Positions 2,909 to 27,157 of a DNA stretch of 64,000 bases are shown here, piece by piece. A model generated the notes under the pieces. That model saw only the letters and a program-made list of their open reading frames with translations. It did not search any database and was not told where the DNA came from. The DNA comes from a virus. The stretch is taken from IMG/VR virus record IMGVR_UViG_3300029023_000077. One strand, 5' to 3'. Made by a program: the position numbers and the translations under genes. Each line of letters starts with the position of its first letter. The stretch's first letter is position 1.

Positions 2909-2922
2909 GTGGATAGTAGAAA

Positions 2923-2956
2923 GGAGCTATCTCGTTTTGAGATAGCTCCTATTATG
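2923..2956 (+). terminator. candidate rho-independent terminator
   Basis: GGAGCTATCTC-GTTTT-GAGATAGCTCC perfect 11-bp stem followed by TATTATGTT. Confidence 0.5.
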
Positions 2957-2970
2957 TTGAGGTTAATTAA

Positions 2971-3894
2971 ATGAAAGTTGAATTAAAGAATGTGCAGAGC
3001 ATAAAGCATGCTCTTTATGAAATACCAGATACAGGTATTATTCAGATTGCTGGTGGTAATTCCAATGGTAAGTCCATCCTATTCAAGGCGATTGGTGCTG
3101 TTGTAAATCAGACTATGGAAAATAATGCCAAGCGCAAGTCTCTTATTCAGAGGCACTGCGATGATGCTGAAATAATAATGCAGCACAAGAACAAAGTTCT
3201 ATATACATACCTGCACCTGGATAGAAATAAGTGTTATGTGGCTTATCAAGAGGAAGGTAGTAAGCCAATTATCCGTACATTCAGGGATAAGGGTATTGAT
3301 AAATTGGTGCGGTCGTTTGGGTTCTACTGTTATGGCAAAAGCTCTGTTTGTTTACAGTTATATGAAACATTCGGTCCAATGCCATTTGTAAACGTGACTG
3401 ATGAAATCAATGGTGAAATTGTTGAATCCGTAACAGAAGATCAGGTGGCTAAGAAGTTCTTAGAGTCCTATAAGAACTTCACATACCCAAAAGCAATTGG
3501 CTACAAGAAAGAGCTCGATAAGAAGATCGACTCACTGATGCAGCTTAAAGCTTCAATTGTTATGTATGATTGGCGGAAATATGAAGAGTTTGGTAATAAG
3601 ATGCGTGAATTTTATCAGGTGCTAAAATTTGCAACTACTGCGCAATTGATACGAGTACACGTCCCGCCGGACATTACGCTCTATGAGGTTGAGCCAATGA
3701 AGTTAAAACATGTGAATGTACTACCATCCGGTGTAGTTTATGATGTGGAACCAGTACGGCTCAGAAAACCTAAAGTTGTATATGAACCTATTAATTGTGT
3801 GCTAACTAAGCCAACACAGTTAGTTTATGAGATGACTAAATTGTATGAAGGTGTCTGCCCGACATGTGGTAGACCATTGATTGATAAGGAGTAG
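2971..3894 (+). CDS. SbcC/Rad50-like ATPase, N-terminal half with zinc hook
   Basis: Walker A GGNSNGKS near N-terminus; C-terminal CPTCGRPL matches the Rad50 CPxCGR zinc-hook. Confidence 0.6.
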   Translation: MKVELKNVQSIKHALYEIPDTGIIQIAGGNSNGKSILFKAIGAVVNQTMENNAKRKSLIQRHCDDAEIIMQHKNKVLYTYLHLDRNKCYVAYQEEGSKPIIRTFRDKGIDKLVRSFGFYCYGKSSVCLQLYETFGPMPFVNVTDEINGEIVESVTEDQVAKKFLESYKNFTYPKAIGYKKELDKKIDSLMQLKASIVMYDWRKYEEFGNKMREFYQVLKFATTAQLIRVHVPPDITLYEVEPMKLKHVNVLPSGVVYDVEPVRLRKPKVVYEPINCVLTKPTQLVYEMTKLYEGVCPTCGRPLIDKE

Positions 3895-3899
3895 AGATT

Positions 3900-4520
3900 A
3901 TGGGGATATGCCCGTTATGCGGTTCAAAATTGAATAGTAAGAATATGTGTACGAATTTTACAGCATGCTCCTATGTGGGCACTAATAGTTTTGATTTGTA
4001 TTCGTTAAAAGATGGGGTTACAGACGAACTTCGGAATAATCTGGTGATTGTTGACCAGACAGTGGCTACAATGGATTTGCCTGCTACACCAGAATTTTTT
4101 ATTTTAGGCGGAGCAGCATTAGTATTTCATGGATTGACAGATCGCCCTACTATGGATATTGACACAGCCAACAGAATAGACGATAATCTACGTGAGGTTA
4201 TTGATGTATTTGTTAGTGATCAGGCAAGTGAGGTTACTCAGCTTGGAAAAGGGTATCAGTGCAGAGCAGTGCCATATATGGAGGAGTTAAGCAACATTAA
4301 GGTGTATCTGCTATCACAGGAAGACCTGATTATAACGAAGGTAATCAGTAATCGGAAAAAGGATATTGGGGATTTGTTGAAAACCAATATCTTGACAAAA
4401 CATAATGTACAGAAGGCGGTAAGTGTCCTTCAGGCAGAGTATCCTGCAGATGCAGCTAAAAGGTATTCTGCTTATATAAAGCATTTGTTAGCTCGAAAGG
4501 AGAACGCAGATTTTGAATAG
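3900..4520 (+). CDS. Pol-beta superfamily nucleotidyltransferase with N-terminal zinc ribbon
   Basis: CPLCGSK...C..C ribbon; ILGGAALVFHGLTDRPTMDIDT = GG-x14-DID NTase motif (AbiEii/Lnu-like). Confidence 0.5.
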   Translation: MGICPLCGSKLNSKNMCTNFTACSYVGTNSFDLYSLKDGVTDELRNNLVIVDQTVATMDLPATPEFFILGGAALVFHGLTDRPTMDIDTANRIDDNLREVIDVFVSDQASEVTQLGKGYQCRAVPYMEELSNIKVYLLSQEDLIITKVISNRKKDIGDLLKTNILTKHNVQKAVSVLQAEYPADAAKRYSAYIKHLLARKENADFE

Positions 4521-4905
4521 TAGGTTGGAATTTCCAGATATGTTGAAAAGGGTGTATGCTTATCGTAAAGAACGGTGTGATGGGGCTTGGAATATTGATA
4601 ATACTGAACAACTCGAAAAACTGTTAGATGATAGTGAACGTGAGTTTTACTTCTTTTTGACATATGCCTACATGTCAAATTTAGATTTAACGGGTATCAT
4701 TACAAATGAAAGTTTACCTATTAGATTGGCGGTTGCTATTTATACCAGCCAAGCTAAGGAGCAAGGGTATGGCTCTATTTGTGAGTACTTGAATCAGTTT
4801 ATAGTAGCAGATGAATCAGTTGTTCAGGCTAAAAAGGTAATCCATGAGATTACTATGGCTAAGCAGCGTGAGAGGATAGAAAATGACAGAAAATTACTGG
4901 ACTAA
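4513..4905 (+). CDS. hypothetical protein
   Basis: 130-aa ORF, overlaps neighbours by a few nt. Confidence 0.45.
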   Translation: MNSRLEFPDMLKRVYAYRKERCDGAWNIDNTEQLEKLLDDSEREFYFFLTYAYMSNLDLTGIITNESLPIRLAVAIYTSQAKEQGYGSICEYLNQFIVADESVVQAKKVIHEITMAKQRERIENDRKLLD

Positions 4906-5971
4906 CCTTTTGTTCGCAGGTGATTTGCACAAGAGGCATAAAGACATATCAACCATCGAAGGGTATGTGAAGTGTACGCATGCGGTACAGGCTCAGTTAG
5001 AACGTGTAATTCAAGATCGGCATGTTGATTACTTTATAAGTCTCGGTGATTGGTATGATAAAGGGTATGCTGCTGACATATCAGCTGCATTATCTGACTG
5101 TGATGCTGATATTCAGATGTCTAAGGTCTTGAATGGTAACTTCTATGGATTGATTGGAAACCATATACGATTGAGTATGGATTCTAATCCGGAGTTGCAC
5201 TTAATTCAACCGCATGCCTATTTGAGAAGCAGGCAGCCTGTTACACGCAAGGATCAAATCATACACACACCTGGAATGTTAAGGATAAATGACGTACAGA
5301 TATCATTCCAGCATTATGATATGGGTTTAAGTAGTGTGGCAGATTACAAGCCTAAGAGAGAATCTTGGGCAAAGTACCACATTGCATTATTCCATACACC
5401 ATTAGTTGTGCCGGGTTATAAGTTAATCGACACACAGTATGGTTACAATATCTCATCCAATAATGATATTGCTTATACATTGGAGAATGTAGATTTGGCA
5501 ATCTGTGGTGATATACATAAACCACTGGGACAATTTGATATTAACAAGCCAAATGGCACAAAGACTGTTATGATTGTGCCGGGCTCACTTACAAATACAG
5601 ACGCAGGTGATGCAAATCGCCATGCGTCTATTTCTATGCCTTTTATTCAGATAGGTCTTAATTCTGAAGTTAAGATTCAGTATATTCCGTTTGACTTGTT
5701 AACTAATACGGTGACGTTTAAAAAGAAGAATATTGAACAAGCACAGGACAAGATGAAAACGTTACGTGGTAAAAGTTTAGAGAATCTGTATAACCCTGAA
5801 GATGTTGTGGCGGCTCTAAGTCACAGAGAAGATACACTCTTATCACTAAATGCGTTTATGGAGTCTAAAGGGTACACTCAAACTGATAAACAGCTTATTC
5901 TGAGTGTAATGCAAAATCCAGAGGATATTTTAAACCTAGTGAAGATATGGCAGGGTGAGAAGATCGTATAG
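4883..5971 (+). CDS. calcineurin-like metallophosphoesterase, SbcD/Mre11-like nuclease
   Basis: Motifs GDLH, LGDWYDKG (GDxxD), IGNHI (GNH) in canonical order. Confidence 0.7.
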   Translation: MTENYWTNLLFAGDLHKRHKDISTIEGYVKCTHAVQAQLERVIQDRHVDYFISLGDWYDKGYAADISAALSDCDADIQMSKVLNGNFYGLIGNHIRLSMDSNPELHLIQPHAYLRSRQPVTRKDQIIHTPGMLRINDVQISFQHYDMGLSSVADYKPKRESWAKYHIALFHTPLVVPGYKLIDTQYGYNISSNNDIAYTLENVDLAICGDIHKPLGQFDINKPNGTKTVMIVPGSLTNTDAGDANRHASISMPFIQIGLNSEVKIQYIPFDLLTNTVTFKKKNIEQAQDKMKTLRGKSLENLYNPEDVVAALSHREDTLLSLNAFMESKGYTQTDKQLILSVMQNPEDILNLVKIWQGEKIV

Positions 5972-5989
5972 TAGGAAGGAGAAATTAAA

Positions 5990-6328
5990 ATGGATATAAA
6001 AGCTGCTGCTGAGAAATACAAGAAGTGTCAGGAAGATTTCATCTCCATGAGGACTAAGGAGGAAGTTATGCTTAACACATTCTTTGAGAGGATACGTTCC
6101 ATAAAGGAACCAATCTTTGAAGGGAAGGTAGCGATACCAGAAAATGCAAATCTCAAAACATTGGTGCCAGAATATTATGTGGAACATCCTAATCAGGAAG
6201 TTTTAGATGCACAAATTGATGCAGTTAATGAGATGCTTGATAAAATTAACGAAATTCTGGTTCTTAAATGTGAGGAGGCAGAAAAATGCTATTCAGAGTA
6301 TCAGGTGCTCGCTTCAGAGAAGCGCTGA
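5990..6328 (+). CDS. hypothetical protein
   Basis: 112-aa ORF with RBS GGAAGGAG. Confidence 0.45.
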   Translation: MDIKAAAEKYKKCQEDFISMRTKEEVMLNTFFERIRSIKEPIFEGKVAIPENANLKTLVPEYYVEHPNQEVLDAQIDAVNEMLDKINEILVLKCEEAEKCYSEYQVLASEKR

Positions 6329-7299
6329 TAGGTGTTGCAGGAGTTGGAACCAAGAAACCTGTGAACCTGACATTTACGCCTGGGTCTTTAAGGATTCAGT
6401 CGAGTAATATCATTATTGTAGAGGAAAACATTGAAGTGCTTGAGCAAGACACGGATTATGAATCTTTTTCTGCGACAATGAATAATACAGTGGATCTAAT
6501 AGATAGTGATGAAGTGCTTAACATTGCAGTAAATGGAGACACTATGACCTTGAGTCAAACGCTTCTGAATTATACAGTTGGTCGGGAATATGCAGAAGCA
6601 ATAGAGTATAAGGAAGTTTCTAATGACTATGAGCAGATTGACAGGAATCAATTAAGCAATATTGTCAAAGATATACGAGCTATAGAGCTTATAACTAAAA
6701 CACTTGGTAAAGATGCATTTGCAGTCTATGTTTATAATGGCAGGTGCTTTATAGATGGACAGTGTATTGCCTATGAAGCTCCGTTAAATCTGCCGAATGC
6801 TGGTGTTACAAATAAGGTCCTTAAGGAACTTGTACGTGTTTGCAGGGGCAATACAAGTGCTTGTGTACAGGATAAAGTTTTATCTGTGAAATCGGCAAAT
6901 AAAAGGATTTTGGTTGCGACAGATGTAGTGGATATGCAGCATGTTAAAGTGCTGCAGTCTATATCTTCAAATATGAAATTACTCACAAGTAATTTTGATA
7001 TTAGTCCGTACACAGGTATATTGGAGACATTCCTAAAGGTGTATAGTGGTTCTTTAGCAAATATCACTATTGGTGAAGATGGCATGTTTGTATTTATGGA
7101 TAATGGTGAAGCTAAAGTTGTTGCGGGTAAACAAGTTGATAGGATTTGTTCTATTCAGCTGTCTATGCAACAGGCTGTGTGTATGAGTCATATCATGGGA
7201 TCTCTAGGTGGAATAGATATTTATGGAGGTAATAATAAAATATGCTTAGTACAGAAGAGCAGCAACAAAAAATTAACTCTTGCAGGGAGCGTTTATTAA
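6286..7299 (+). CDS. hypothetical protein (weak resemblance to sliding-clamp N-termini)
   Basis: 337-aa ORF; MLFRVSGARFREAL... start resembles DnaN/gp45-type clamps, only by eye. Confidence 0.4.
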   Translation: MLFRVSGARFREALIGVAGVGTKKPVNLTFTPGSLRIQSSNIIIVEENIEVLEQDTDYESFSATMNNTVDLIDSDEVLNIAVNGDTMTLSQTLLNYTVGREYAEAIEYKEVSNDYEQIDRNQLSNIVKDIRAIELITKTLGKDAFAVYVYNGRCFIDGQCIAYEAPLNLPNAGVTNKVLKELVRVCRGNTSACVQDKVLSVKSANKRILVATDVVDMQHVKVLQSISSNMKLLTSNFDISPYTGILETFLKVYSGSLANITIGEDGMFVFMDNGEAKVVAGKQVDRICSIQLSMQQAVCMSHIMGSLGGIDIYGGNNKICLVQKSSNKKLTLAGSVY

Positions 7300-7901
7300 G
7301 CGCTATCGTGCAGGCGAGTGAAAGAACTGATATTGGGCGTAATAATGAAAAGAGGGCGCAGAGTCTGGATACTGAGTTGGATAATTATATTAAAGTAAGA
7401 GATACTGTTCGAGAGGTAATTAACCACATCTCCAGCATGTATAAGAATATCCAAAAATATGCTGATGACAGGCGGGAGCTCTCGATGGAGATGTTAAAAC
7501 TGGCTATTGCAAAAGCTGGATATATTGTTCCGGATGCTGCCATTGATAATATTCATTTGGAAGTTGAAGATAAAAAAGCCTGTATTGTAGACAATGAAGG
7601 TATTGATGTGAACCTGAAAGAAGGTTCAGCTTACCGTACAGTCATGAGTGCTTTGATTCGGTACACATTACTCATGGAATTGCCAGATGCTATAAAGATT
7701 ATTTTCTTTGATGAGGCTTTCGGCACATTGAGTGAAGAAACTATTAACCAGATGAGGGAGTACTTTAGTGTATTTCAAAAGGATGTTGCAATTGTAGGTA
7801 TTGAACAGAGAGACTCATTGTTCCAGGGATTGCCAAAAGTGAAATTTATTGCGACTAAAGATGCTGATGGTACAACGACAATCAGACAGGAGACGTTATG
7901 A
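7242..7901 (+). CDS. SbcC/Rad50-like ATPase, C-terminal half
   Basis: IIFFDEAFGTLSEETI = SbcC Walker B/D-loop (cf. LFIDEGFGTLD); preceded by coiled-coil-like region. Confidence 0.6.
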   Translation: MLSTEEQQQKINSCRERLLSAIVQASERTDIGRNNEKRAQSLDTELDNYIKVRDTVREVINHISSMYKNIQKYADDRRELSMEMLKLAIAKAGYIVPDAAIDNIHLEVEDKKACIVDNEGIDVNLKEGSAYRTVMSALIRYTLLMELPDAIKIIFFDEAFGTLSEETINQMREYFSVFQKDVAIVGIEQRDSLFQGLPKVKFIATKDADGTTTIRQETL

Positions 7902-8641
7902 AAAAATTAAAAGATCTACTTAATACTAGGTATGTATATAATAGTTATCTTACAAAGCTGGATCAGGTGCTGCGAGAGATTACTGAAAATGAGAGGGAAT
8001 TAGATTTAGCTGAATGTAATTTTACACCACAGGCAGCTGGTGTAATTCGCCACTATTATGGAAAAATCTATTTTGTTAATTCGGCAGATGCTAGGTTAAA
8101 TCAGTTATTACTTGCAAATAACGGATGCCTGACTGCAAAAATGGAGAATCCACAATTGTTGAAATTTGATTTCAAAAATGTTGAAGAATTTAAACAGTTG
8201 TTGATGAGTCTTGATAAAACAGGTAACTATGTGCTGGCGCCTGGACGTGATATCGCTACTATCGCTACAGCTACAATCATTATCATGATGTACCCTAATT
8301 TGATGTTGGACGTAGATAACCGCATTGGTGAGATATTTAAGTTTGCAAGAAACGAATGGCTGAAGTGCAATGAACATCATGATGCATATTGGCTTGTAGA
8401 TAATACAGGACTTGTTAAATTACCAGTGGACGAAGATGGGTATGTCAAGCTCATTGATAAACGACTTGTAAAAGAGAGTGTTCTTGTGAAGTTATATAAT
8501 GTAATGCCGGTCGACTTTGGAACTAGAGTAATTATAAAGGATGATGAATTCCGTCCGATTTTCCAAAATGCATTAAGGGTGCTGGATACAAAGCATGAGC
8601 CAGAACGTCGTATGTTGGATTTTTTGGAGAGGAGAGGTTAG
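7898..8641 (+). CDS. hypothetical protein
   Basis: 247-aa ORF, start overlaps upstream stop. Confidence 0.5.
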   Translation: MKKLKDLLNTRYVYNSYLTKLDQVLREITENERELDLAECNFTPQAAGVIRHYYGKIYFVNSADARLNQLLLANNGCLTAKMENPQLLKFDFKNVEEFKQLLMSLDKTGNYVLAPGRDIATIATATIIIMMYPNLMLDVDNRIGEIFKFARNEWLKCNEHHDAYWLVDNTGLVKLPVDEDGYVKLIDKRLVKESVLVKLYNVMPVDFGTRVIIKDDEFRPIFQNALRVLDTKHEPERRMLDFLERRG

Positions 8642-8642
8642 A

Positions 8643-10781
8643 ATGAGTGATACAGAAAAGATTCTGGAGGGTATGGATGCTTCCTTGTTGGAAGTAATAA
8701 GGTCTATTGATGCAAGAACAAATAGCTACTCTACAAATGAGCAAGTTGCCTTTGCGTCGGATTTCAGAAAGCCGATGATTTCCTTCTCTAACCCAGGAAC
8801 AGGAAAGACACACAGTATTGTTCATGGTCTTATTGTTGCCCAAACTTACCATGGTATACCAGGAAGGCAGATTAATGCCATGTCGTTTACGGACGCAGCA
8901 ACTGCGGAATTAAGTATTAGATATAAGAAGGCATGTAAAAAGTGTGATATGACTCCTACAGTGCAATTTAATACATTCCATAAGATTTGCTGGAATATTG
9001 TTAGGGAGGCTTATCCTGACATGACTTTGACTGGAACTTTCATACGTGAAGAGGACTTGGAAATGTTACACGGAATTATGGAAGACAATGGTTATGTCGA
9101 AGATGATATGGCTCAGGTTAAAAGAATCTATGAGGCTATAGAGAAGTTAAATCACGCTCTAATATATGACCCGGATAATATCAGGGAATCATACACTTTC
9201 AATCAACTTGACTTGGATATGGATATATTCCAGGAGCTGCGTAAGGGGCTTTTTAGACAGAAACTGTTTGGAAGGAGCATATCAGTTGGTGATATTCCGC
9301 TGTATGCTCTTTTTGCTTTGTGCAAAAAACAGTTCATCGGCTCTAAATATAGGGGTATGTATAAAATCATGGTTGTTGATGAGTTTCAGGATATGACAAA
9401 GCTATATCTCGTTATCTTATCAATGATTAGTGACAATCTGATTGCCATTGGTGACATGAAACAGCAAATTTATGGTTACAATGGTGCGAGCCCCTACATT
9501 GCAGATTTATATAAGAAGATGTACCCGGATGCAAGAGAAGTACCGTTGACACAATCTTTCCGGTGTGGCAATGAGATTGCAGAATATGCGACCCGTATAC
9601 AGGAGCCTAATTATCCAGGTATTGTTCCATTCAAAGGAGTATCTGATGGTGCAGAGGTTATTATTAAGCCTGTATCTGAATTAAGTTTAGATGACATAGT
9701 GAAGAAAATAGCTGAGGATAACGTAAGTGCTTATACTACTGGGAAAAGATGGACTACAATGTTCTTATTTAGAAATAATTATTCCATCACACCTATCGCA
9801 GAGGCGTTGTACAAGGCTGGGGTAAAATTCCGTGTCAAGAATTTTGCCATGATTATGACAATGCCAATCTACAAAGAATTGTGCTATTATGCAGATATTG
9901 CTGAAAATCCTGAAGATATTGAGTGTCTGAAGTATATACCGTTCATCATGCCTCAGTTTGAAAAGTACAAAAAAGAGCCATGGCTCAATCCGGTGTATAA
10001 ATGTGCACAGGAGAAGCATGATAGAGGTGAGCATGTAAACTTCTTTGAACTACCAGTTAAGTATAATGAGGACAGCTTGAAGATCATTTCTGTTCTTAAA
10101 GGTGTAAATTCCCGTATGTTAGAGGGTTGTAAAGCAGACACTGTTTTCTCATTGCTTGAGCCCCTATATGATGAATATGTTATTAAGGGCAAATGGTATA
10201 CACTTCAAAAGCCTGTAGAATATTATACAGGCATGGTGCAGCCTATTGCAGAAAAGAAGACATATTCTGTTTTAAAATCTGAGGAAAGAGCAAAGCTTGC
10301 TTTTACAAATGATGCAATAAAATTGAATATGGGTGTTCGGTGTTATACTATGCACTCTGCTAAGGGTTTGGAGGCAGATGAAGTATTTATCATTGATGCT
10401 GATGATGGTACATTGCCTGCAACTAAGCGTGTAAATAAAATGGTAAGGTCAGGTTGTGCATTCGAAGCGGCAAAGACTGTGAGAGAAGACAGGAACCTAC
10501 TTTATGTCGCAATTACGAGGGCAAAGTCAAAAGTAACGATTACCTACAATGGGCAGATTACGCCATTACTTGGTAGTCCAATGTACAATGAGTTCTCTGA
10601 GTTGGATGAGGTATACACACAGGCACGTCAGGACTATGACGACATGAAATATTTTAAACAAATTACAAATATTCATGAACGCATAGAAAGATTAGATACT
10701 CCCGAGACATATATAAGTGAGGATGCAATTGGAGATTCAGATATTGGCGATAACTTTGGCAAAGGATTGGAGATGATTTAG
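8643..10781 (+). CDS. UvrD/PcrA/Rep-family SF1 DNA helicase
   Basis: Motif I NPGTGKTH, motif II VVDEFQDMT, FRCGNEI, motif V HSAKGLEADEV, motif VI LLYVAITRAKSKV; start ATG 8643 after RBS GGAGAGGAGAGG. Confidence 0.85.
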   Translation: MSDTEKILEGMDASLLEVIRSIDARTNSYSTNEQVAFASDFRKPMISFSNPGTGKTHSIVHGLIVAQTYHGIPGRQINAMSFTDAATAELSIRYKKACKKCDMTPTVQFNTFHKICWNIVREAYPDMTLTGTFIREEDLEMLHGIMEDNGYVEDDMAQVKRIYEAIEKLNHALIYDPDNIRESYTFNQLDLDMDIFQELRKGLFRQKLFGRSISVGDIPLYALFALCKKQFIGSKYRGMYKIMVVDEFQDMTKLYLVILSMISDNLIAIGDMKQQIYGYNGASPYIADLYKKMYPDAREVPLTQSFRCGNEIAEYATRIQEPNYPGIVPFKGVSDGAEVIIKPVSELSLDDIVKKIAEDNVSAYTTGKRWTTMFLFRNNYSITPIAEALYKAGVKFRVKNFAMIMTMPIYKELCYYADIAENPEDIECLKYIPFIMPQFEKYKKEPWLNPVYKCAQEKHDRGEHVNFFELPVKYNEDSLKIISVLKGVNSRMLEGCKADTVFSLLEPLYDEYVIKGKWYTLQKPVEYYTGMVQPIAEKKTYSVLKSEERAKLAFTNDAIKLNMGVRCYTMHSAKGLEADEVFIIDADDGTLPATKRVNKMVRSGCAFEAAKTVREDRNLLYVAITRAKSKVTITYNGQITPLLGSPMYNEFSELDEVYTQARQDYDDMKYFKQITNIHERIERLDTPETYISEDAIGDSDIGDNFGKGLEMI

Positions 10782-14217: not shown

Positions 14218-16260
14218 ATGATTGAATGTACGAAAGCGATTGATGGGTTAGTAAGTGCAGCTTTTGGGAAGAATATGGTGACTATCTCTGATTTGAAGAA
14301 GATGATGGACAGATTTGCACTTGATCCTAAGGTATCAGAAGTAGCCAGAGAAGCATTCATTGTCAGTGATGTTGACCTGAACAGACGCATGCTCAAGGAG
14401 TTTGAAAAGAAAGCAGCGGCTAAGCATGAAGAGGTTGTCATTATTTTTGTAGCAAAGAAAGGTCCTGCACCATTCAAAGAAATGGCAGGTGTTAATGCTA
14501 TTTTAGAAAAACCGACACCAGAAGATTTGAGTAAAACAACATTCGGTATTATCGAGAGCATTACACAGAAGAATGGCGTTGTACCTATTACTGGTGTAAC
14601 AGATAGCGCAAAAGATTTTGTGAGACAGGAAGAACCAGTTGATCTTGATGTACTTACAGATGAATTTGGTAACCCACTGGAATTTGACCTTAACCGGGTC
14701 GTTGAGGACGAGAAGCCACAGGAAGATACAGCACCGATTGACGTTCCTGTTCCTACTTTGGAGGAGCAGCCAGTTCAGGAAGAGCCGCCAGTCCAGTTTG
14801 ATAAGCCTGAGGATCTTGTTGACCGTATCAAGATGTGCGATAAAGTTAAGGACATTAATATCTTGACACGTGAGCTGACAGCTACAGCTGTCATTAAGGA
14901 GATGATCAAGTCTTCAGCAGACTACACAGGAATTGAAGAACGTTTGAAAGGGCTTAATGAGAAGATTCAAGCAGTATATCTTGATACAACAATTCCTGAG
15001 CAGGATAAGTTGGATAAGGTTCGTGCTCTACTCTATGATAAAGGTTATTACAGAACAAAGACTAACACTATTATTGAGCAGCGTGTAGAAGAGCTTATCA
15101 AGACTATTACTGACCGGACAAGAGAATGCTTGGATAAGCGATGCCAGGAATTAGAGAGGGCAATCGTTAATTATTCATCAGGAGTAAAAGCTCCTTTGGA
15201 TACTGCCAGGGTGTCTAGCCTGATTGATGATCGTGCAAACATTCTTCTGGAAATTACAGCTTTGCGTGAAGAAGTGCAGAATATCTATCTTAAGGTAAAC
15301 AAGTTTGCAGGTGATGCTACTGCTAATATTCTTGAAGACAGTGTGGTTCGCACAGGAAGCCCATTAATTGATGCTCGTTTAAGGTTAGCTGGAGATACTA
15401 CAGTACCTGAGCAGACAACAGAAATCATTGAGAAGATTTTAGAACTGTCAAGTACTAAGTCTGAGGAGTTTAAGGAAGCAAATAGAAAATTAATCATTCT
15501 TACACAGAAGTTGCAGACTGTTATGAATTTAGACAAAGATTTGATTGACGCCCTTACGCAGGCTGTTGAGCTTCTGCAGAGTAACAATATTGAGGATCGT
15601 ATCGTACAGGAGACACTGCTAAAGAAGTCACTTAGGTTCTTTGTGGCAAAAGAAGGCAGTGGAAGGACTGTTATCCCATACATTTGCTCTAAGTTGAAGT
15701 CCAGGACAAACTGTAATGTGCTTTATGTGGATATCGCAGGTGATTCTAAGCTCGCAGATTATACAGAGAGTTACATGAGTCTGGATGATTGGTTAGGTAA
15801 TCAGTATCAGGAGCAGTTCTGTGCAGTAGTTGGTACAATCTCAAATACGCCAGAGGCAGCACAGCGTTTGCTTGTTGCCTTAACAAAGGCAGCTGACTAC
15901 TATCGTGTAATTAATGTTGTAATGAGTCCTGAACAGAAAGAGATTTTTGACATTCTTGTTCCAGATACGGTATGTGTTAATTATATCGTTGACCCTACAT
16001 CACAGTCACTTGATTTCTTTAAGGGCTATATCAAGGAGACTAAATGTGAAAATGTGGCTCAGCGTGTAATTATTAACAAGTGTATCCCTAGTACGACTAG
16101 TATGATTCTTGAGAAGCTGGATCTTATCATGAATGGAGACGTACATGTCGTTACAGTACCGTATGAGCCTCTGATTACGGAATGTAGTCTGCGTGGTGTT
16201 AAGCCATATGAGTTGCAGGTCGTTACAGAAGCATTCAGAGAGGTGTGCAAAGTATGCTAA
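14218..16260 (+). CDS. large hypothetical protein with acidic, proline-rich linker
   Basis: 680-aa ORF; EEQPVQEEPPVQ low-complexity segment; RBS AAGAAAGAGAGG. Confidence 0.55.
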   Translation: MIECTKAIDGLVSAAFGKNMVTISDLKKMMDRFALDPKVSEVAREAFIVSDVDLNRRMLKEFEKKAAAKHEEVVIIFVAKKGPAPFKEMAGVNAILEKPTPEDLSKTTFGIIESITQKNGVVPITGVTDSAKDFVRQEEPVDLDVLTDEFGNPLEFDLNRVVEDEKPQEDTAPIDVPVPTLEEQPVQEEPPVQFDKPEDLVDRIKMCDKVKDINILTRELTATAVIKEMIKSSADYTGIEERLKGLNEKIQAVYLDTTIPEQDKLDKVRALLYDKGYYRTKTNTIIEQRVEELIKTITDRTRECLDKRCQELERAIVNYSSGVKAPLDTARVSSLIDDRANILLEITALREEVQNIYLKVNKFAGDATANILEDSVVRTGSPLIDARLRLAGDTTVPEQTTEIIEKILELSSTKSEEFKEANRKLIILTQKLQTVMNLDKDLIDALTQAVELLQSNNIEDRIVQETLLKKSLRFFVAKEGSGRTVIPYICSKLKSRTNCNVLYVDIAGDSKLADYTESYMSLDDWLGNQYQEQFCAVVGTISNTPEAAQRLLVALTKAADYYRVINVVMSPEQKEIFDILVPDTVCVNYIVDPTSQSLDFFKGYIKETKCENVAQRVIINKCIPSTTSMILEKLDLIMNGDVHVVTVPYEPLITECSLRGVKPYELQVVTEAFREVCKVC

Positions 16261-17648
16261 ATCTTGATGGTTATTTGGATTGTAATAAAGTCCTAGACAT
16301 CAATAGGTATACGAGTCTTAGATTTGCAGATTCACGTGTATTTAAAACGCCAGAGGCATTGTCTTTATATGAGCAGAATTACATGCTTGCATCGGATATT
16401 AAAAAATTGTGTGAGAAAGAATATGGTCTTGAGCTGTTTGAGCCAAGACCATCTTTTATACCAGATGATATCATAAATCATTACAACGGTTCAGGTTATG
16501 TACCTATAAAGTATGAACCTATGAAGAATATCTTGTTGTTGATGTATCTGCCTGAAGTAAAAACATTAGAAAGTCATTACCCTAATGTGCATATTGAGAC
16601 TAAGCCAACAACCATATATTACTATATGAAATATTATCAGAAGTATTATGGTGTTCACAGATCTCTGCGGGATATTCCAGCTAAGATGTTATTTGATTTT
16701 GTTGTAAAAGAAGCTATTGAGAAAGATGCTGCAGATATTACGATTTCAAATACTGGTAAAGCCACAGTTGTATATTACAATATACGCAAGCGGAAGGTAT
16801 GGTCAAACTATTGCTTTAGCCAAGAAATCATGGGTGACATTATAAAGTTTATCACTATAAGCTCACCATTAGACAGAGGGTCTCGTAAAGCTAAGGCTTT
16901 AGATATCGATTTAAATGAAAATTACCGTGGCAGAGTCATGATAAATCAATCATTTAAAGGCATGACTATTACAATTCGTGTTTTACCAAACGCAGCATTC
17001 TCTACTGATATAACAGAGTTAAATTTGACAAAAGAAGCCGAAGAGTGGATGTTGGATAATATTCTTGATATGGAGAAAGGGCTTCGCTTGATTGTAGGTG
17101 AGACAATGTCCGGGAAAAATACAGATGCTTTGTCCCTGTTACAGCGATTAGTAGAGACAGACAGGTATAAGATAGTGTCCGTAGAGATACCAGTGGAGCA
17201 AGAATTGCCTGGTGTTGAACAAATTAATTGTGATACGCCGGACGATTACTCAAACAACATAAAATCTTTAATCAGAGTGAATCCAGACTTTGTTTACATT
17301 ACAGAGATGCAGGATGCTACTGCATTAGACACTATTAAGATAACTAACACAGGTAAATGTGTTTTATCAACAGTACATGCAAACTCTGTCGGGGATACTA
17401 TCGTGAGGCTGATGGATATGACAGGTTTGCCTCAGGATAGAATTGTACAAACTTTGCATTCTGTAGTGTATCAGGAACTCGTAAGAGATGACTCTAAGGA
17501 TTTTGTATATCCAAGATGCCGGTATGTTCGTTTCACGCCTGAGTTGAAGTACCAGCTTTATGGGAAACCACTAGGTGTGATGTTAAAGATTATTCAGGAT
17601 TATGAGGAGGGGGATGTATGGACATCTATTCAGCATTTGGCACAATAG
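16245..17648 (+). CDS. GspE/PilT/VirB11-family traffic ATPase
   Basis: Walker A GETMSGKNT; Asp/His boxes RVNPDFVYITEMQDATA ... TGKCVLSTVHANSVGDTIVRLMDM as in PilT/VirB11. Confidence 0.65.
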   Translation: MQSMLNLDGYLDCNKVLDINRYTSLRFADSRVFKTPEALSLYEQNYMLASDIKKLCEKEYGLELFEPRPSFIPDDIINHYNGSGYVPIKYEPMKNILLLMYLPEVKTLESHYPNVHIETKPTTIYYYMKYYQKYYGVHRSLRDIPAKMLFDFVVKEAIEKDAADITISNTGKATVVYYNIRKRKVWSNYCFSQEIMGDIIKFITISSPLDRGSRKAKALDIDLNENYRGRVMINQSFKGMTITIRVLPNAAFSTDITELNLTKEAEEWMLDNILDMEKGLRLIVGETMSGKNTDALSLLQRLVETDRYKIVSVEIPVEQELPGVEQINCDTPDDYSNNIKSLIRVNPDFVYITEMQDATALDTIKITNTGKCVLSTVHANSVGDTIVRLMDMTGLPQDRIVQTLHSVVYQELVRDDSKDFVYPRCRYVRFTPELKYQLYGKPLGVMLKIIQDYEEGDVWTSIQHLAQ

Positions 17649-18510: not shown

Positions 18511-19665
18511 ATGAGAAATGAGATTCGTGGTATTGCGGTCGATAATGGTGGTAGTGAAGTAAGAGTGATGGATGGTATGAATCCTGTATTAGAAGACATG
18601 ATCAAGCTGAAGAATGATTTTGTCTCTATCAAGGAGAAGGATTTCAGGGTAAAAGAGGTTGCTGAACCTGCAAAGCTTTGTAGGGTATTGGAAGCGCCTA
18701 ATCCTGATTTCATGGGAATCTTTGCACAAGGTTTGACAGGTAAAGCATATGAAGGTCAGGTTGTGGCTATTTCCAGCCAGAAAGAAAAGACTGCTGACCC
18801 AAATTATTATAAGCAGTTTATATTTGCAGTGGCACAAGATGCATTGAAAGCTTGGATTCAGTCAGGTGGTTACTCTATGTACTCTAACGGTAACTCTGAA
18901 TCACAGCAGCACCCGGACATTGCTGATTCGTACGATTACTGTATTGTGGCTTGCATCCCTATTCAGGAGTTCAGCGGTGCAAAAGATTGTGCAGGATTGT
19001 TAAAAAATACGTTGCAGGGTCATTATGTTGTAGAGTTTCCATTGTTAGATAAGAAACCTGTGATCTCTTTCAACATTAAAGCTGAGTTTATGGGTGCAGC
19101 ACCTGAAGGTGGTATTGCTGTTAAGGCTCTGAAAGATCAGTTAGAAGAAGATGATATTTCCTTATTGGTTGATATGGGTTGTGTTACAACAGATATTGCA
19201 TTATTTCAAGGTACACATCTCTTAGGTAGGGTGTCATCTGTTAAATTTGCAAGTAGTACATTAGTTGCAAATATTCGTGCTGTATTGGCAGATGAAGGCT
19301 ATTTCGTGTCAGAAGCACAGGCTGAAAATGTACTGATTGCAAAACGTGTTAAGGATGGTCATGAGTCCGTAGATGTTTCTGCCATTGTAGAGGAGCAGAG
19401 CCGTAATTTTGTTCGTAACTACTTACAGAATGAGATAATTGGTATCCTTAATGCAAATCATGTTAATGCAAGACAGGTTCAGAACTTTGTGCCAATAGGT
19501 GCTTCTTTTAATAACCCGGAAAGTAATGCACTTATTTCAGAGATTGTTGCTTGTGCTAATTTACAGAAAGCAAAGCTCTGCATTCTTGCTGACGATTTAC
19601 GTTATGTGAATATCCAGCAGGCTAGTCGTTTTGTCAAGAAGTTTGTTAAGAAAGCAAAGGCGTGA
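18511..19665 (+). CDS. actin-like ATPase (ParM/Alp family)
   Basis: Phosphate-1 GIAVDNGGSEVRV and phosphate-2 LLVDMGCVTTDIALF motifs of actin-fold segregation ATPases. Confidence 0.55.
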   Translation: MRNEIRGIAVDNGGSEVRVMDGMNPVLEDMIKLKNDFVSIKEKDFRVKEVAEPAKLCRVLEAPNPDFMGIFAQGLTGKAYEGQVVAISSQKEKTADPNYYKQFIFAVAQDALKAWIQSGGYSMYSNGNSESQQHPDIADSYDYCIVACIPIQEFSGAKDCAGLLKNTLQGHYVVEFPLLDKKPVISFNIKAEFMGAAPEGGIAVKALKDQLEEDDISLLVDMGCVTTDIALFQGTHLLGRVSSVKFASSTLVANIRAVLADEGYFVSEAQAENVLIAKRVKDGHESVDVSAIVEEQSRNFVRNYLQNEIIGILNANHVNARQVQNFVPIGASFNNPESNALISEIVACANLQKAKLCILADDLRYVNIQQASRFVKKFVKKAKA

Positions 19666-25984: not shown

Positions 25985-27157
25985 ATGGTGGGTAAGATTG
26001 ATTCTTTTGATAAGGTAATTGGGCACAAGTCTTTAATTACGTACATACAGCATTGGATCGACACAGACACGACGCCTAATGTTCTGTTGTTTCATGGTAA
26101 TCCAGGTCTTGGTAAATCGTCTATTGCAAAATTGTTGGCGATTGCTCTTACAACAGATGAAAGTACGCGGAAGGATGCTGTAGAGAATGTAATTTACAAT
26201 AATAGGTCTACTGGAAGTATAAAACTATTCAGCATGTCAAAGATTCAGGACAAAGAAGAGGAGATTAAGAAAGTTTCTGGGGAACTACAGATGAACTTTG
26301 TTAATACAAAGCATAAGGTTCTAATTCTGGATGAAGCACATGAGATGTCAAAGGCAGCACAGGATTCTATTCTTGTTGAATTGGAACATCTACCTGAAGG
26401 ACTGCACGTTTTTATTTGTACAACAGAGATTAATGCATTTCGACCGGCTCTAGTTTCTCGTTGTAAGGTGCTTGAATTACATCCGTTATCTGAAAACGAA
26501 GCAAGACAGTTGTTTAACCGTGAAGTAAAAGAAAGGGATCTTACATTTGAGCTTCAGCAGGGGCTGGCTTCAACGCTTATCTGTGGATGGGCGGAAAACC
26601 AGCCACGTAAGATAATTAATCTGTTGGACAATTTTGAGAATCATGCATTAGTAAAGACAAGGGAGTTGGAAGTATTCATTAACACTGTCAACTCATCTTC
26701 AGTTATAGAGCTTGTTAAGTATCTCTATGGATCAATGCCATTAGGTATTGAATACATTCAATCCATCAAGCTGGATAATACTTTTGTGATGATGCTTATT
26801 GAGGTAACAAAGGTTGCAATGGGTGTGCCATCAAACAGACTTAGCCTACCTGATGTACAGTATATACAGGCTTTTATGCAGGATAAAGATATTAATAAAC
26901 TCTTGCAGTTTGTCATTGAGGTATCTGGGCTTAGTACATTATATAAGCGTCGTGTTATCTCTGCCTTTATGAGAGCACATGTAGATTTCAAGAGAGCAGT
27001 CCCAATAAATGAAGTCCATACAAGTGCAGGTGCGGATATACAGGCAGTAGCAGACAATATTGAAGATAAAAGTGCTATGATACAGCGACAGGAAGGTGTA
27101 CAAGGCGTTACACCTGTTGACATGCTATTTGATCAGCTTAGCACAGTGGAGGTGTAA
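25985..27157 (+). CDS. AAA+ clamp-loader subunit (RFC / Pol III gamma-tau / gp44-like)
   Basis: Walker A GNPGLGKSS, Walker B LILDEAHEM, sensor-1 ICTTE, SRC motif ALVSRCKVLEL. Confidence 0.7.
   Translation: MVGKIDSFDKVIGHKSLITYIQHWIDTDTTPNVLLFHGNPGLGKSSIAKLLAIALTTDESTRKDAVENVIYNNRSTGSIKLFSMSKIQDKEEEIKKVSGELQMNFVNTKHKVLILDEAHEMSKAAQDSILVELEHLPEGLHVFICTTEINAFRPALVSRCKVLELHPLSENEARQLFNREVKERDLTFELQQGLASTLICGWAENQPRKIINLLDNFENHALVKTRELEVFINTVNSSSVIELVKYLYGSMPLGIEYIQSIKLDNTFVMMLIEVTKVAMGVPSNRLSLPDVQYIQAFMQDKDINKLLQFVIEVSGLSTLYKRRVISAFMRAHVDFKRAVPINEVHTSAGADIQAVADNIEDKSAMIQRQEGVQGVTPVDMLFDQLSTVEV

Follow-up and report, generated by a model that had tools for sequence, protein, structure and literature searches.

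Rad50/SbcC is a universal DNA-repair ATPase, and the signaling from its coiled coil and hook to its head is an active question. A Rad50 encoded by two genes is unusual, the protein normally being a single chain. The locus described here lies at positions 2971–10781 of a 64,000-nucleotide stretch of virus DNA (IMG/VR record IMGVR_UViG_3300029023_000077; the whole stretch is termed the window below). It raises the question of whether two open reading frames (ORFs), separated by 3.3 kb, encode the two halves of one such ATPase, divided at the zinc hook, as an initial annotation made from the sequence alone had proposed. All ORFs named in that annotation were found at their positions on the + strand in an ORF check of the window, and E-values and motifs for the window ORFs were obtained from Pfam, PHROG, NCBIfam, and PADLOC scans together with profiles built from homologs. 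The upstream ORF (N-half) and the downstream ORF (C-half) are probably halves of one Rad50/SbcC-type ATP-binding cassette (ABC) ATPase, naturally split at the apex of the coiled coil. The proposed split at the hook is supported by complementary motifs, colinear remote matches, predicted fold, and conserved gene order.

Complementary ABC ATPase motifs in two ORFs

The catalytic motifs of the two ORFs are complementary, with Walker A found in the N-half only and the signature-position motif, Walker B, and D-loop found in the C-half only. As initially annotated, the ORF at 2971–3894 combines a Walker A motif (G28-GNSNGKS-35) with a terminal hook-like motif (CPTCGR), and the ORF at 7242–7901 carries an SbcC-type Walker B/D-loop (IIFFDEAFGTLSEET) and no P-loop. 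Neither ORF alone is a complete ATPase. The two together can form one, the bipartite head being composed of GGNSNGKS from the N-half and IIFFDE plus AFGTLS from the C-half. The same annotation had suggested looking for a remnant of the ABC signature motif in the C-half; at the position of that motif E127-G128 is invariant, and the reading, EG[SG], is non-canonical.

Remote matches were individually weak, and all were colinear with canonical Rad50/SbcC. The N-half aligned by hhalign to residues 7–163 of T4 gp46 (E 4.4e-5) and residues 2–51 of Escherichia coli SbcC (E 3e-4), and the C-half aligned to the extreme C termini of the same two proteins (gp46 residues 497–544, E 0.02; SbcC residues 970–1006, FLDEGFGTLDSET, E 2e-3). 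Searched against the Protein Data Bank (PDB), the N-half profile matched Pyrococcus furiosus Rad50 in two regions, the zinc-hook structures (6ZFF and 1L8D, E ∼2e-3) and the N-lobe (1II8, E 6e-3).

For structure prediction by AlphaFold2 (AF2), the N- and C-halves were joined end to end with an unpaired alignment of 30 N-half and 11 C-half homologs, the latter restricted to close C-halves, as divergent ones were misaligned by MAFFT. The joined model exhibited a mean predicted local distance difference test score (pLDDT) of 84.3 and a predicted template modeling score (pTM) of 0.66, with residues 230–276 as the only unconfident stretch. In order, it comprises an N-lobe, arm helices (158–219), the linker at 230–276, a helix (281–292), the CPTC turn, a 92-residue helix, and an alpha/beta C-lobe. 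When compared to the PDB with Foldseek, the top 50 matches were all SMC, Rad50, or RecN heads (E 1e-12 to 1e-8), and the alignments extended across both halves. Among BFVD viral models, the leading matches were single-chain Rad50/gp46 “endonuclease subunit” proteins of 548 to 625 amino acids (aa). The two halves sum to 526 aa, similar to T4 gp46 (560 aa). The initial annotation had named unrelated folds of the two ORFs, or a complete sbcC elsewhere in the genome, as outcomes that would speak against a split gene; the joined fold is that of a Rad50/SMC head, and no complete sbcC was present within the 64-kb window.

Functional Rad50 catalytic heads can be reconstituted from N- and C-terminal segments produced separately. 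These classical reconstitutions establish that a two-chain head is viable, and PDB entries that hold Rad50 N-segments as separate chains (1F2T_A, 149 aa; 1II8_A, 195 aa) are consistent with this.

A zinc-hook-like motif at the predicted apex

The C terminus of the N-half reads ...EGVCPTCGRPLIDKE. Residues C296, P297, and C299 were invariant in a 24-sequence N-half alignment, and CP[TMI]C was present in 58/58 N-half homologs, located 5 to 26 residues before the C terminus at the end of the ascending arm. These hook residues, together with the invariant Walker B/D-loop residues of the C-half, are more than would be expected by chance. The context of the motif also agrees with the P. furiosus Rad50 hook, both in the profile alignment (...elkel.egkCPtCGReL versus IEELKKAKGKCPVCGREL) and in the window protein itself (...L.EG.CPTCGRPL versus ...KAKGKCPVCGREL). 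Evidence for a CxxC hook at the apex is thus at the level of sequence, consisting of the universally present motif and the 1L8D and 6ZFF matches. The predicted coiled coil is represented by high-confidence helices at 158–219 in the N-half and by the 92-residue helix of the C-half, with a 47-residue unconfident, non-helical linker in the ascending arm.

Several observations weigh against the assignment of the two ORFs to a single Rad50/SbcC-type ATPase. All curated Rad50/SbcC family scores were below Pfam gathering cut-offs, namely AAA_23 (E 1.4e-3, 19.7 versus 27 bits), Rad50_zn_hook for the N-half (E 0.028, 14.7 bits versus 24.3), and SbcC_Walker_B for the C-half (E 1.4e-4, 22.4 versus 27 bits). 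NCBIfam Rad50/SbcC scores were far below threshold, and a match to PHROG 77 (“SbcC-like”, E 7e-4) covered 40 residues only. The C-half profile gave no significant match to PDB sequences. At the signature position, EG[SG] (EGGG across most of the family) stands instead of SGG, and Glu-Gln takes the place of the H-loop histidine; the canonical pairing of LSGGE/Q with an H-loop His is therefore lacking. The ascending arm is only partly helical in the AF2 model, and the input to that model was an artificial fusion with an unpaired alignment, by which the apex is forced together. Given these motif departures and an ascending arm that varies in length and is non-helical in part, both ATP turnover and the mechanics of the arms may deviate from textbook Rad50, and head engagement or hydrolysis driven by ATP may be atypical. 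For the phosphoesterase encoded between the halves, Lmo2642, Rv0805, and purple acid phosphatases scored like Mre11/SbcD in Foldseek, such that the fold search does not separate Mre11 from calcineurin-like phosphoesterases. The 64-kb window covers only part of a genome whose size is at least 350 kb, and a canonical sbcC may lie elsewhere in that genome. Finally, at least two additional Cys/His residues follow the hook in 19 of the 58 N-halves, where they could form a zinc site complete in itself instead of a hook shared between chains.

The last point leads to an alternative in which the ORFs are still halves of one Rad50/SMC-type ATPase, with CPTCG serving as an intrachain zinc knuckle, or as a staple between the N-half tail and the C-half N terminus, rather than as an inter-protomer hook. 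The extra ligands (CxC, CxH, HxH, or CC) occur 5 to 10 residues past CPTCG, nine more N-halves have one such ligand, and a Cys is found at residue 13 or 14, near the predicted apex, in about half of 154 C-halves (C14, nt 7281–7283, in the window; CRECLL in the related locus L002). However, no further Cys or His follows the motif in 30 of the 58 N-halves, including that of the window, no Cys is present in the first 30 residues of 78 of the 154 C-halves, and the L005 pair lacks both features. As the extra ligands are missing in many pairs, a bare CxxC needs two ligands from another copy, as in Rad50. The flanks of the motif (helix-G-x-CPxCGRxL) moreover match the P. furiosus hook specifically. 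We consider a knuckle or staple unlikely and favor a hook shared between protomers. Across paired loci, N-half tails with second ligands and C-half Cys 13–14 exhibited no clean correlation.

Conservation of the split

Homologs of the N-half (n = 58) were all 289 to 356 aa in length. Relatives of the C-half numbered 40 in a word-index search and 189 clusters in a HMMER scan of 1.84 billion representative proteins; the full-length relatives were all stand-alone proteins of ∼200 to 240 aa, and shorter matches were fragments. Two C-half matches were unusually long, one a protein of 1291 aa with low complexity and the other a protein of 412 aa without annotation. A search for a fused gene in homologs had been suggested as a check, and no fused N+C form was found among the 58 N-half matches, the 40 C-half matches, or the 189 C-half clusters. 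With the lobes on two genes rather than in a single polypeptide and no fused relative found, the architecture is not that of canonical single-chain SbcC or gp46, as first noted.

Twelve related loci, with N-half identity of 24 to 63%, were compared. Their sources are gut metagenomes (human, mouse, and other), a single viral contig of IMG/VR, and contigs that had been binned with metagenome-assembled genomes of Lachnospiraceae and Endomicrobiellum. Both halves were present in the same order, with a Metallophos gene between them, in 12/12. The shared arrangement is a ∼400-aa protein, the N-half, 0 to 7 variable genes, Metallophos, a small ORF, a ∼340-aa ORF, the C-half, a ∼245-aa ORF, and a UvrD helicase, although the L007 contig ends inside the C-half, so that the last two genes are unseen there. 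The five genes initially annotated between the halves were all confirmed as ORFs in the window, but only three, encoding the phosphoesterase, the small ORF, and the ∼340-aa ORF, are conserved between the halves in relatives. The split is ancient and family-wide. No homolog was detectable in GenBank phages by blastn or tblastn, and a search of IMG/VR returned one distant locus only.

The same gene layout was present in several independent assemblies, and independent gene calls yielded identical products of 307 and 219 aa, so the layout is not a frameshift or assembly artifact. Its presence in divergent relatives as well rules out recent insertion. Joining of the halves by a split intein or intron was likewise ruled out, as there are no intein-like or intein-sized termini and the 3.3 kb between the halves consists of conserved coding genes.

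Decay or disruption by insertion of an sbcC gene, leaving non-functional fragments, or resemblance between two unrelated proteins, would fit the sub-threshold scores for every curated family, the non-canonical motifs, and the mobile-looking cargo genes beside the N-half. Such an origin is nevertheless highly improbable. The halves are intact and of constant length, their catalytic motifs stay invariant among relatives with as little as 24% identity and across separate host bins, both genes are preceded by Shine-Dalgarno sequences and have conserved N termini, and the joined model is a confident, complete head. Comparison with near-identical strains revealed 29 synonymous and 3 nonsynonymous differences in the N-half (pN/pS ∼0.03), a sequence pattern that indicates strong purifying selection and thereby argues for excluding a pseudogene or recent disruption. 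Two halves of one maintained ATPase remain the favored explanation. Relative to the almost identical strains L013, L014, and L016, only the N-half gene reaches a pS of ∼0.15 (at most 0.015 in its neighbors), a pattern suggestive of a recombination tract ending at the junction of the N-half and the cargo island described below.

Genes between the halves

The phosphoesterase retains the invariant metal-binding motifs D14-x-H16, G55-D56-x-x-D59, G92-N93-H94, H171, G209-x-x-H212, and H247. Its AF2 model (pLDDT 75, pTM 0.72) consists of a core, a disordered linker (278–321), and a C-terminal three-helix module (322–356), a layout resembling that of Mre11/SbcD, in which a flexible linker precedes Rad50-binding helices. 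Approximately 30 of its top 50 Foldseek matches in the PDB were Mre11/SbcD. Similarity to the gp47 and SbcD sequences was marginal, and profiles of the nuclease and of the 337-aa protein gave nothing significant against PDB sequences. The phosphoesterase is thus a putative Mre11-like nuclease partner, an assignment well motivated by synteny and consistent with the fold. The exact nuclease protein (4883–5971) was found on 83 contigs and is listed in 149 blocks of the collection, and members of its cluster occur on contigs of up to 608 kb.

The pair could conceivably be a split SMC/Rad50-like ATPase acting outside Mre11-Rad50 function, for example in DNA tethering, partition, as a replication accessory, or in defense or anti-defense, with the phosphoesterase independent of it. 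By fold, the heads of SMC, cohesin, condensin, and RecN matched as well as that of Rad50, Mre11 does not stand out in the phosphoesterase fold search, and the signature motif and H-loop are non-canonical. Weak, generic matches were also seen to the defense ATPases mad3, GajA, and PtuA, most of them limited to the P-loop region at the N terminus, with the mad3 match reaching residue 219. However, there is no hinge domain, and a CPxCGR hook, a hallmark of Rad50/SbcC, stands in its place; the Walker B/D-loop is of SbcC type; the phosphoesterase gene lies between the halves at every related locus; and, among viral structures, recombination endonuclease subunits of the gp46 type lead the matches. 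Matches to PADLOC defense systems were weak only (E 9e-5 to 0.03, most within the first 45 to 80 residues) and came with no partner genes, and no system matched beyond generic P-loop similarity. A role apart from Mre11 is accordingly quite improbable, and a Rad50/SbcC-type ATPase working with the encoded nuclease is preferred.

The gap between the N-half and nuclease genes is hypervariable, with no genes in L006 and up to seven in L009 (window, 3895–4882; L009, 4792–10253; L007, 3792–7990; L008, 10926–12022). It contains DUF6036/AbiEii-like nucleotidyltransferases, SLFN/AlbA_2-HATPase, AAA-ATPase_like/PDDEXK_9, and S24-like proteins, which are candidate defense or anti-defense genes. The nucleotidyltransferase is absent or replaced in L005, L006, L007, and L008; in L006 the nuclease gene directly follows the N-half, marking the nucleotidyltransferase as cargo of a variable island. 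Its N terminus has a four-Cys ribbon of its own (CPLCG...C...C, 3900–3971), present in the L003 ortholog and absent in those of L002 and L009. A zinc ribbon shared by the CPTCG of the N-half and the MGICPLCG of this next ORF was considered and rejected, given that the latter has its own Shine-Dalgarno sequence, a different frame, and its own four Cys, that the ribbon is missing in the L002 and L009 orthologs, and that the whole gene is absent from several loci. The 130-aa ORF (4513–4905) is semi-conserved, in that several loci, though not every one, have a similar small gene ahead of the nuclease gene.

The 337-aa profile was recognized in 10 of the 11 related loci searched; an unmatched 344-aa ORF occupies the position in L018, and L007 was outside the search. 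The 337-aa ORF overlaps the start of the C-half by 58 nt in the window and by 49 to 58 nt in most relatives, which suggests that the two are translationally coupled. One homolog weakly matched the DNA_pol3_beta N-terminal domain (E 0.007), and an hhalign comparison of the family with E. coli DnaN was not significant; the protein is possibly sliding-clamp-like.

Proposed assembly and role

From motif complementarity, fold, conservation, and synteny, each established computationally, we infer a physical assembly together with its zinc binding, ATPase and nuclease activities, and biological role. The halves would join non-covalently, through an antiparallel arm and a bipartite head, into one Rad50-like protomer: the C-half helix would pair antiparallel with the N-half arm, and both lobes would form one ABC head. 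Two protomers would engage head to head with ATP sandwiched between them, and one zinc ion would be shared by two N-half hooks. Because the N-half is continuous from head to hook, N-half chains alone could close the ring, with the C-half completing the active site and stiffening the arms. The initial annotation had envisaged dimerization of the two halves through the hook. A split at the hook is borne out, but the hook would join two N-halves, N–C contact being made by the coiled coil and head.

The complex would recruit the co-encoded Mre11/SbcD-like nuclease, probably through the C-terminal helical module of the latter, and, by processing DNA ends or hairpins, may serve the recombination-dependent replication or the repair of a large phage-like element, as T4 gp46/47 does. 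The surrounding genes are co-directional replication genes, encoding a putative SSB-like protein, the UvrD helicase, and, ∼18 kb further downstream, a clamp loader (25985–27157); the neighborhoods of relatives contain DNA polymerase A, primase, and RNase H.

A more speculative possibility, to which we give a low probability, is functional fission, in which the C-half is a separately supplied and exchangeable subunit, possibly coupled in translation to the preceding gene given their overlap, and the free N terminus at the apex makes an openable gate or zinc-stapled joint in a regulated three-gene Mre11-Rad50 (MR) machine. If this were true, it would be direct evidence that nature can dispense with a covalent link between the arms of the Rad50 coiled coil at the apex. 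A natural, family-wide split at the hook, if correct, would itself mean that an unbroken apex hairpin is not required. A split Rad50 would also provide a ready-made two-chain system in which each arm can be labeled, mutated, and titrated separately, and it prompts one to ask why the nuclease gene and two further genes have stayed inside the split in this lineage.

Locus layout and host element

Genes of the locus overlap or are tightly packed (Table 1). A single strong terminator-like hairpin directly precedes the N-half gene and is probably the end of the preceding gene's transcription unit; no comparable terminator was found within 2971–10781, where two 6-bp stems within coding sequence are at chance level. 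The preceding gene (1682–2908) encodes a 408-aa protein without a family match and with an acidic C-terminal tail (...LDSGDIADI), which could be SSB-like. All related loci except L001 (11 of 12) have an ORF of ∼384 to 446 aa, matched by position, directly before the N-half.

Table 1. Features of the split Rad50-like locus in the window. Residue numbers refer to the respective half unless stated.
Feature	Position	Strand	Remarks
Terminator-like hairpin, 13-bp stem	2922–2950	+	Directly upstream of N-half gene; sole strong one
N-half of probable split Rad50-like ATPase, 307 aa	2971–3894	+	N-lobe, ascending arm, C-terminal zinc-hook motif; ends ...YEGVCPTCGRPLIDKE
Walker A/P-loop, G28-G-N-S-N-G-K-S35	3052–3075	+	G28, N30, S31, N32, G33, K34, S35 invariant (24-sequence alignment)
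Predicted ascending arm helices, residues 158–195 and 201–219	3442–3627	+	AF2 pLDDT ∼90–96
Proline-rich, variable-length linker in ascending arm, residues 230–276	3658–3798	+	pLDDT <50, predicted non-helical; indel-rich (24-sequence alignment)
Zinc-hook-like motif, C296-P-T-C-G-R301	3856–3873	+	Short helix 281–292 before; 6 residues after
DUF6036/AbiEii-like nucleotidyltransferase	3900–4520	+	Pfam E 6.7e-21
130-aa ORF	4513–4905	+	No family match
Mre11/SbcD-like metallophosphoesterase, 362 aa	4883–5971	+	Pfam Metallophos E 1.7e-8
Conserved small ORF, 112 aa (relatives 101–243 aa)	5990–6328	+	No family match
Conserved 337-aa ORF	6286–7299	+	No family match; 3' end overlaps C-half start
C-half of probable split Rad50-like ATPase, 219 aa	7242–7901	+	Descending arm helix and C-lobe
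Predicted single 92-residue helix, descending coiled-coil arm, residues 4–95	7251–7526	+	AF2 helix 311–402 in joined numbering, pLDDT mostly 79–96
E127-G128-S129, ABC signature position (LSGGQ/E), helix N-cap	7620–7628	+	E127, G128 invariant in 33 sequences; helix start from AF2
Walker B (I153-IFFDE158) and D-loop (A159-FGTLS164), SbcC-type	7698–7733	+	D157, E158, F160, S164 invariant in 33 homologs
G186-I-E-Q189, H-loop position	7797–7808	+	Usual His replaced by invariant Glu and near-invariant Gln; aligned to gp46 “iisHk” region
Conserved 247-aa ORF after C-half	7898–8641	+	Synteny
UvrD/Rep-type SF1 helicase, downstream end of module	8595–10781	+	Pfam UvrD-helicase E 1e-28; PHROG 1967 E 6.9e-63; synteny

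The same genes occur on contigs of 350 to 608 kb, and the element, likely larger than 350 kb, is common in gut metagenomes. Across the window (1–64000), the credible genes are all on the + strand, GC skew is strongly and uniformly positive (0.17–0.33 in every 2-kb bin), and GC content is 32 to 40%. A T2SSE (PilB/VirB11-type) ATPase (E 5.6e-36) and a partition-like protein lie among the replication genes (16245–17648 and 18511–19665), as does a GreA/GreB-like protein in the downstream regions of L002, L003, and L008. A scan of the 20 largest ORFs recognized no capsid or terminase. The element is possibly not a conventional phage, and may be either a huge phage or a plasmid-like replicon. Toward the end of the window, a 598-aa protein (60165–61961) has an N-terminal P-loop (AKGTSGKS at residue 25) and a C-terminal Metallophos domain (E 5.5e-7), a combination reminiscent of kinase-phosphatase end-healing enzymes; a weak HipA_C-like protein (58840–60123) adjoins it.

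The family comprises at least 189 clusters at 50% identity in huge phage-like gut elements and is missed by current Pfam, NCBIfam, and PHROG models, so both halves are called hypothetical by annotation pipelines.

Comparison with known systems

T4 gp46/gp47 and the viral single-chain “recombination endonuclease subunit” proteins are similar to the present system in combined size (526 versus 548–625 aa) and in having a bipartite ABC head and, by prediction, a short coiled coil. T4 gp46/gp47 also shares a nearby metallophosphoesterase partner gene and a replication/recombination context. In contrast, gp46 is one polypeptide, whereas here a division at the apex gives genes for 307 and 219 aa, with the nuclease and two other conserved genes between; the H-loop His and signature Ser of gp46 are replaced here, and sequence similarity is marginal. 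The Walker B/D-loop pattern is near-identical to that of E. coli SbcC (FFDEAFGTLSEET here versus FLDEGFGTLDSET), and SbcC (1048 aa)/SbcD (400 aa) likewise has an N-terminal P-loop lobe, a CxxC hook between arms, and a nuclease in the same operon. SbcC differs in being a single chain with far longer coiled coils, the arms here being ∼60 to 90 residues and the ascending arm partly non-helical. With P. furiosus Rad50, the shared feature is the sequence context of the hook. Rad50 heads have been crystallized from separate N and C segments, and a two-chain head is hence physically viable; unlike those laboratory constructs, which lack arms and hook, the split here is natural and the N-chain keeps the full arm and hook.

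Viral Mre11-Rad50 fusions and intein-bearing Rad50-like proteins have been catalogued, and viral MR variants were found there by the same hallmarks of Metallophos, AAA_23 or SbcC_Walker_B, and a CPxC hook (bioRxiv 10.64898/2026.07.21.739742). Those proteins are alike in their variable MR gene architecture, but they involve fusion or insertion, as opposed to fission of Rad50 here; no intein motifs are present in the split halves, and there is no room for one. The large subunit of T4 topoisomerase II, gp39/gp60, is a comparable case of a single-chain ancestor now encoded by two genes separated by inserted DNA (T4 record). It is, however, an unrelated enzyme, its split is confined to T4 and close relatives, and a homing-endonuclease remnant lies between the genes, whereas the split described here encloses conserved functional genes. 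RloC, a tRNase that resembles Rad50 in its coiled coil and zinc hook, is likewise a non-canonical ABC ATPase with a CxxC hook in a coiled-coil insert (PMC2610378). It is made as one chain and has no Metallophos partner, and its C terminus holds an anticodon-nuclease domain of a kind absent here.

SMC proteins proper (Smc, MukB, cohesin, condensin) differ in that CPxCG ends the N-half at the hinge site, leaving no room for a hinge, and no kleisin-like match was found in Pfam or NCBIfam scans. RecN and RecF, single-chain SMC-like heads that lack a zinc hook and a nuclease partner, are set apart by the hook present here; NCBIfam RecF scored 17.8 bits against a cut-off of 172, and RecN ranked low among the fold matches. 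Full-text literature searches turned up no natural split of Rad50/SbcC. The locus would encode a machine that works like gp46/gp47, SbcCD, and Mre11-Rad50, shares their bipartite head and hook motif, and departs from them in its divided chain, its scores relative to curated thresholds, its signature motif, and its H-loop.

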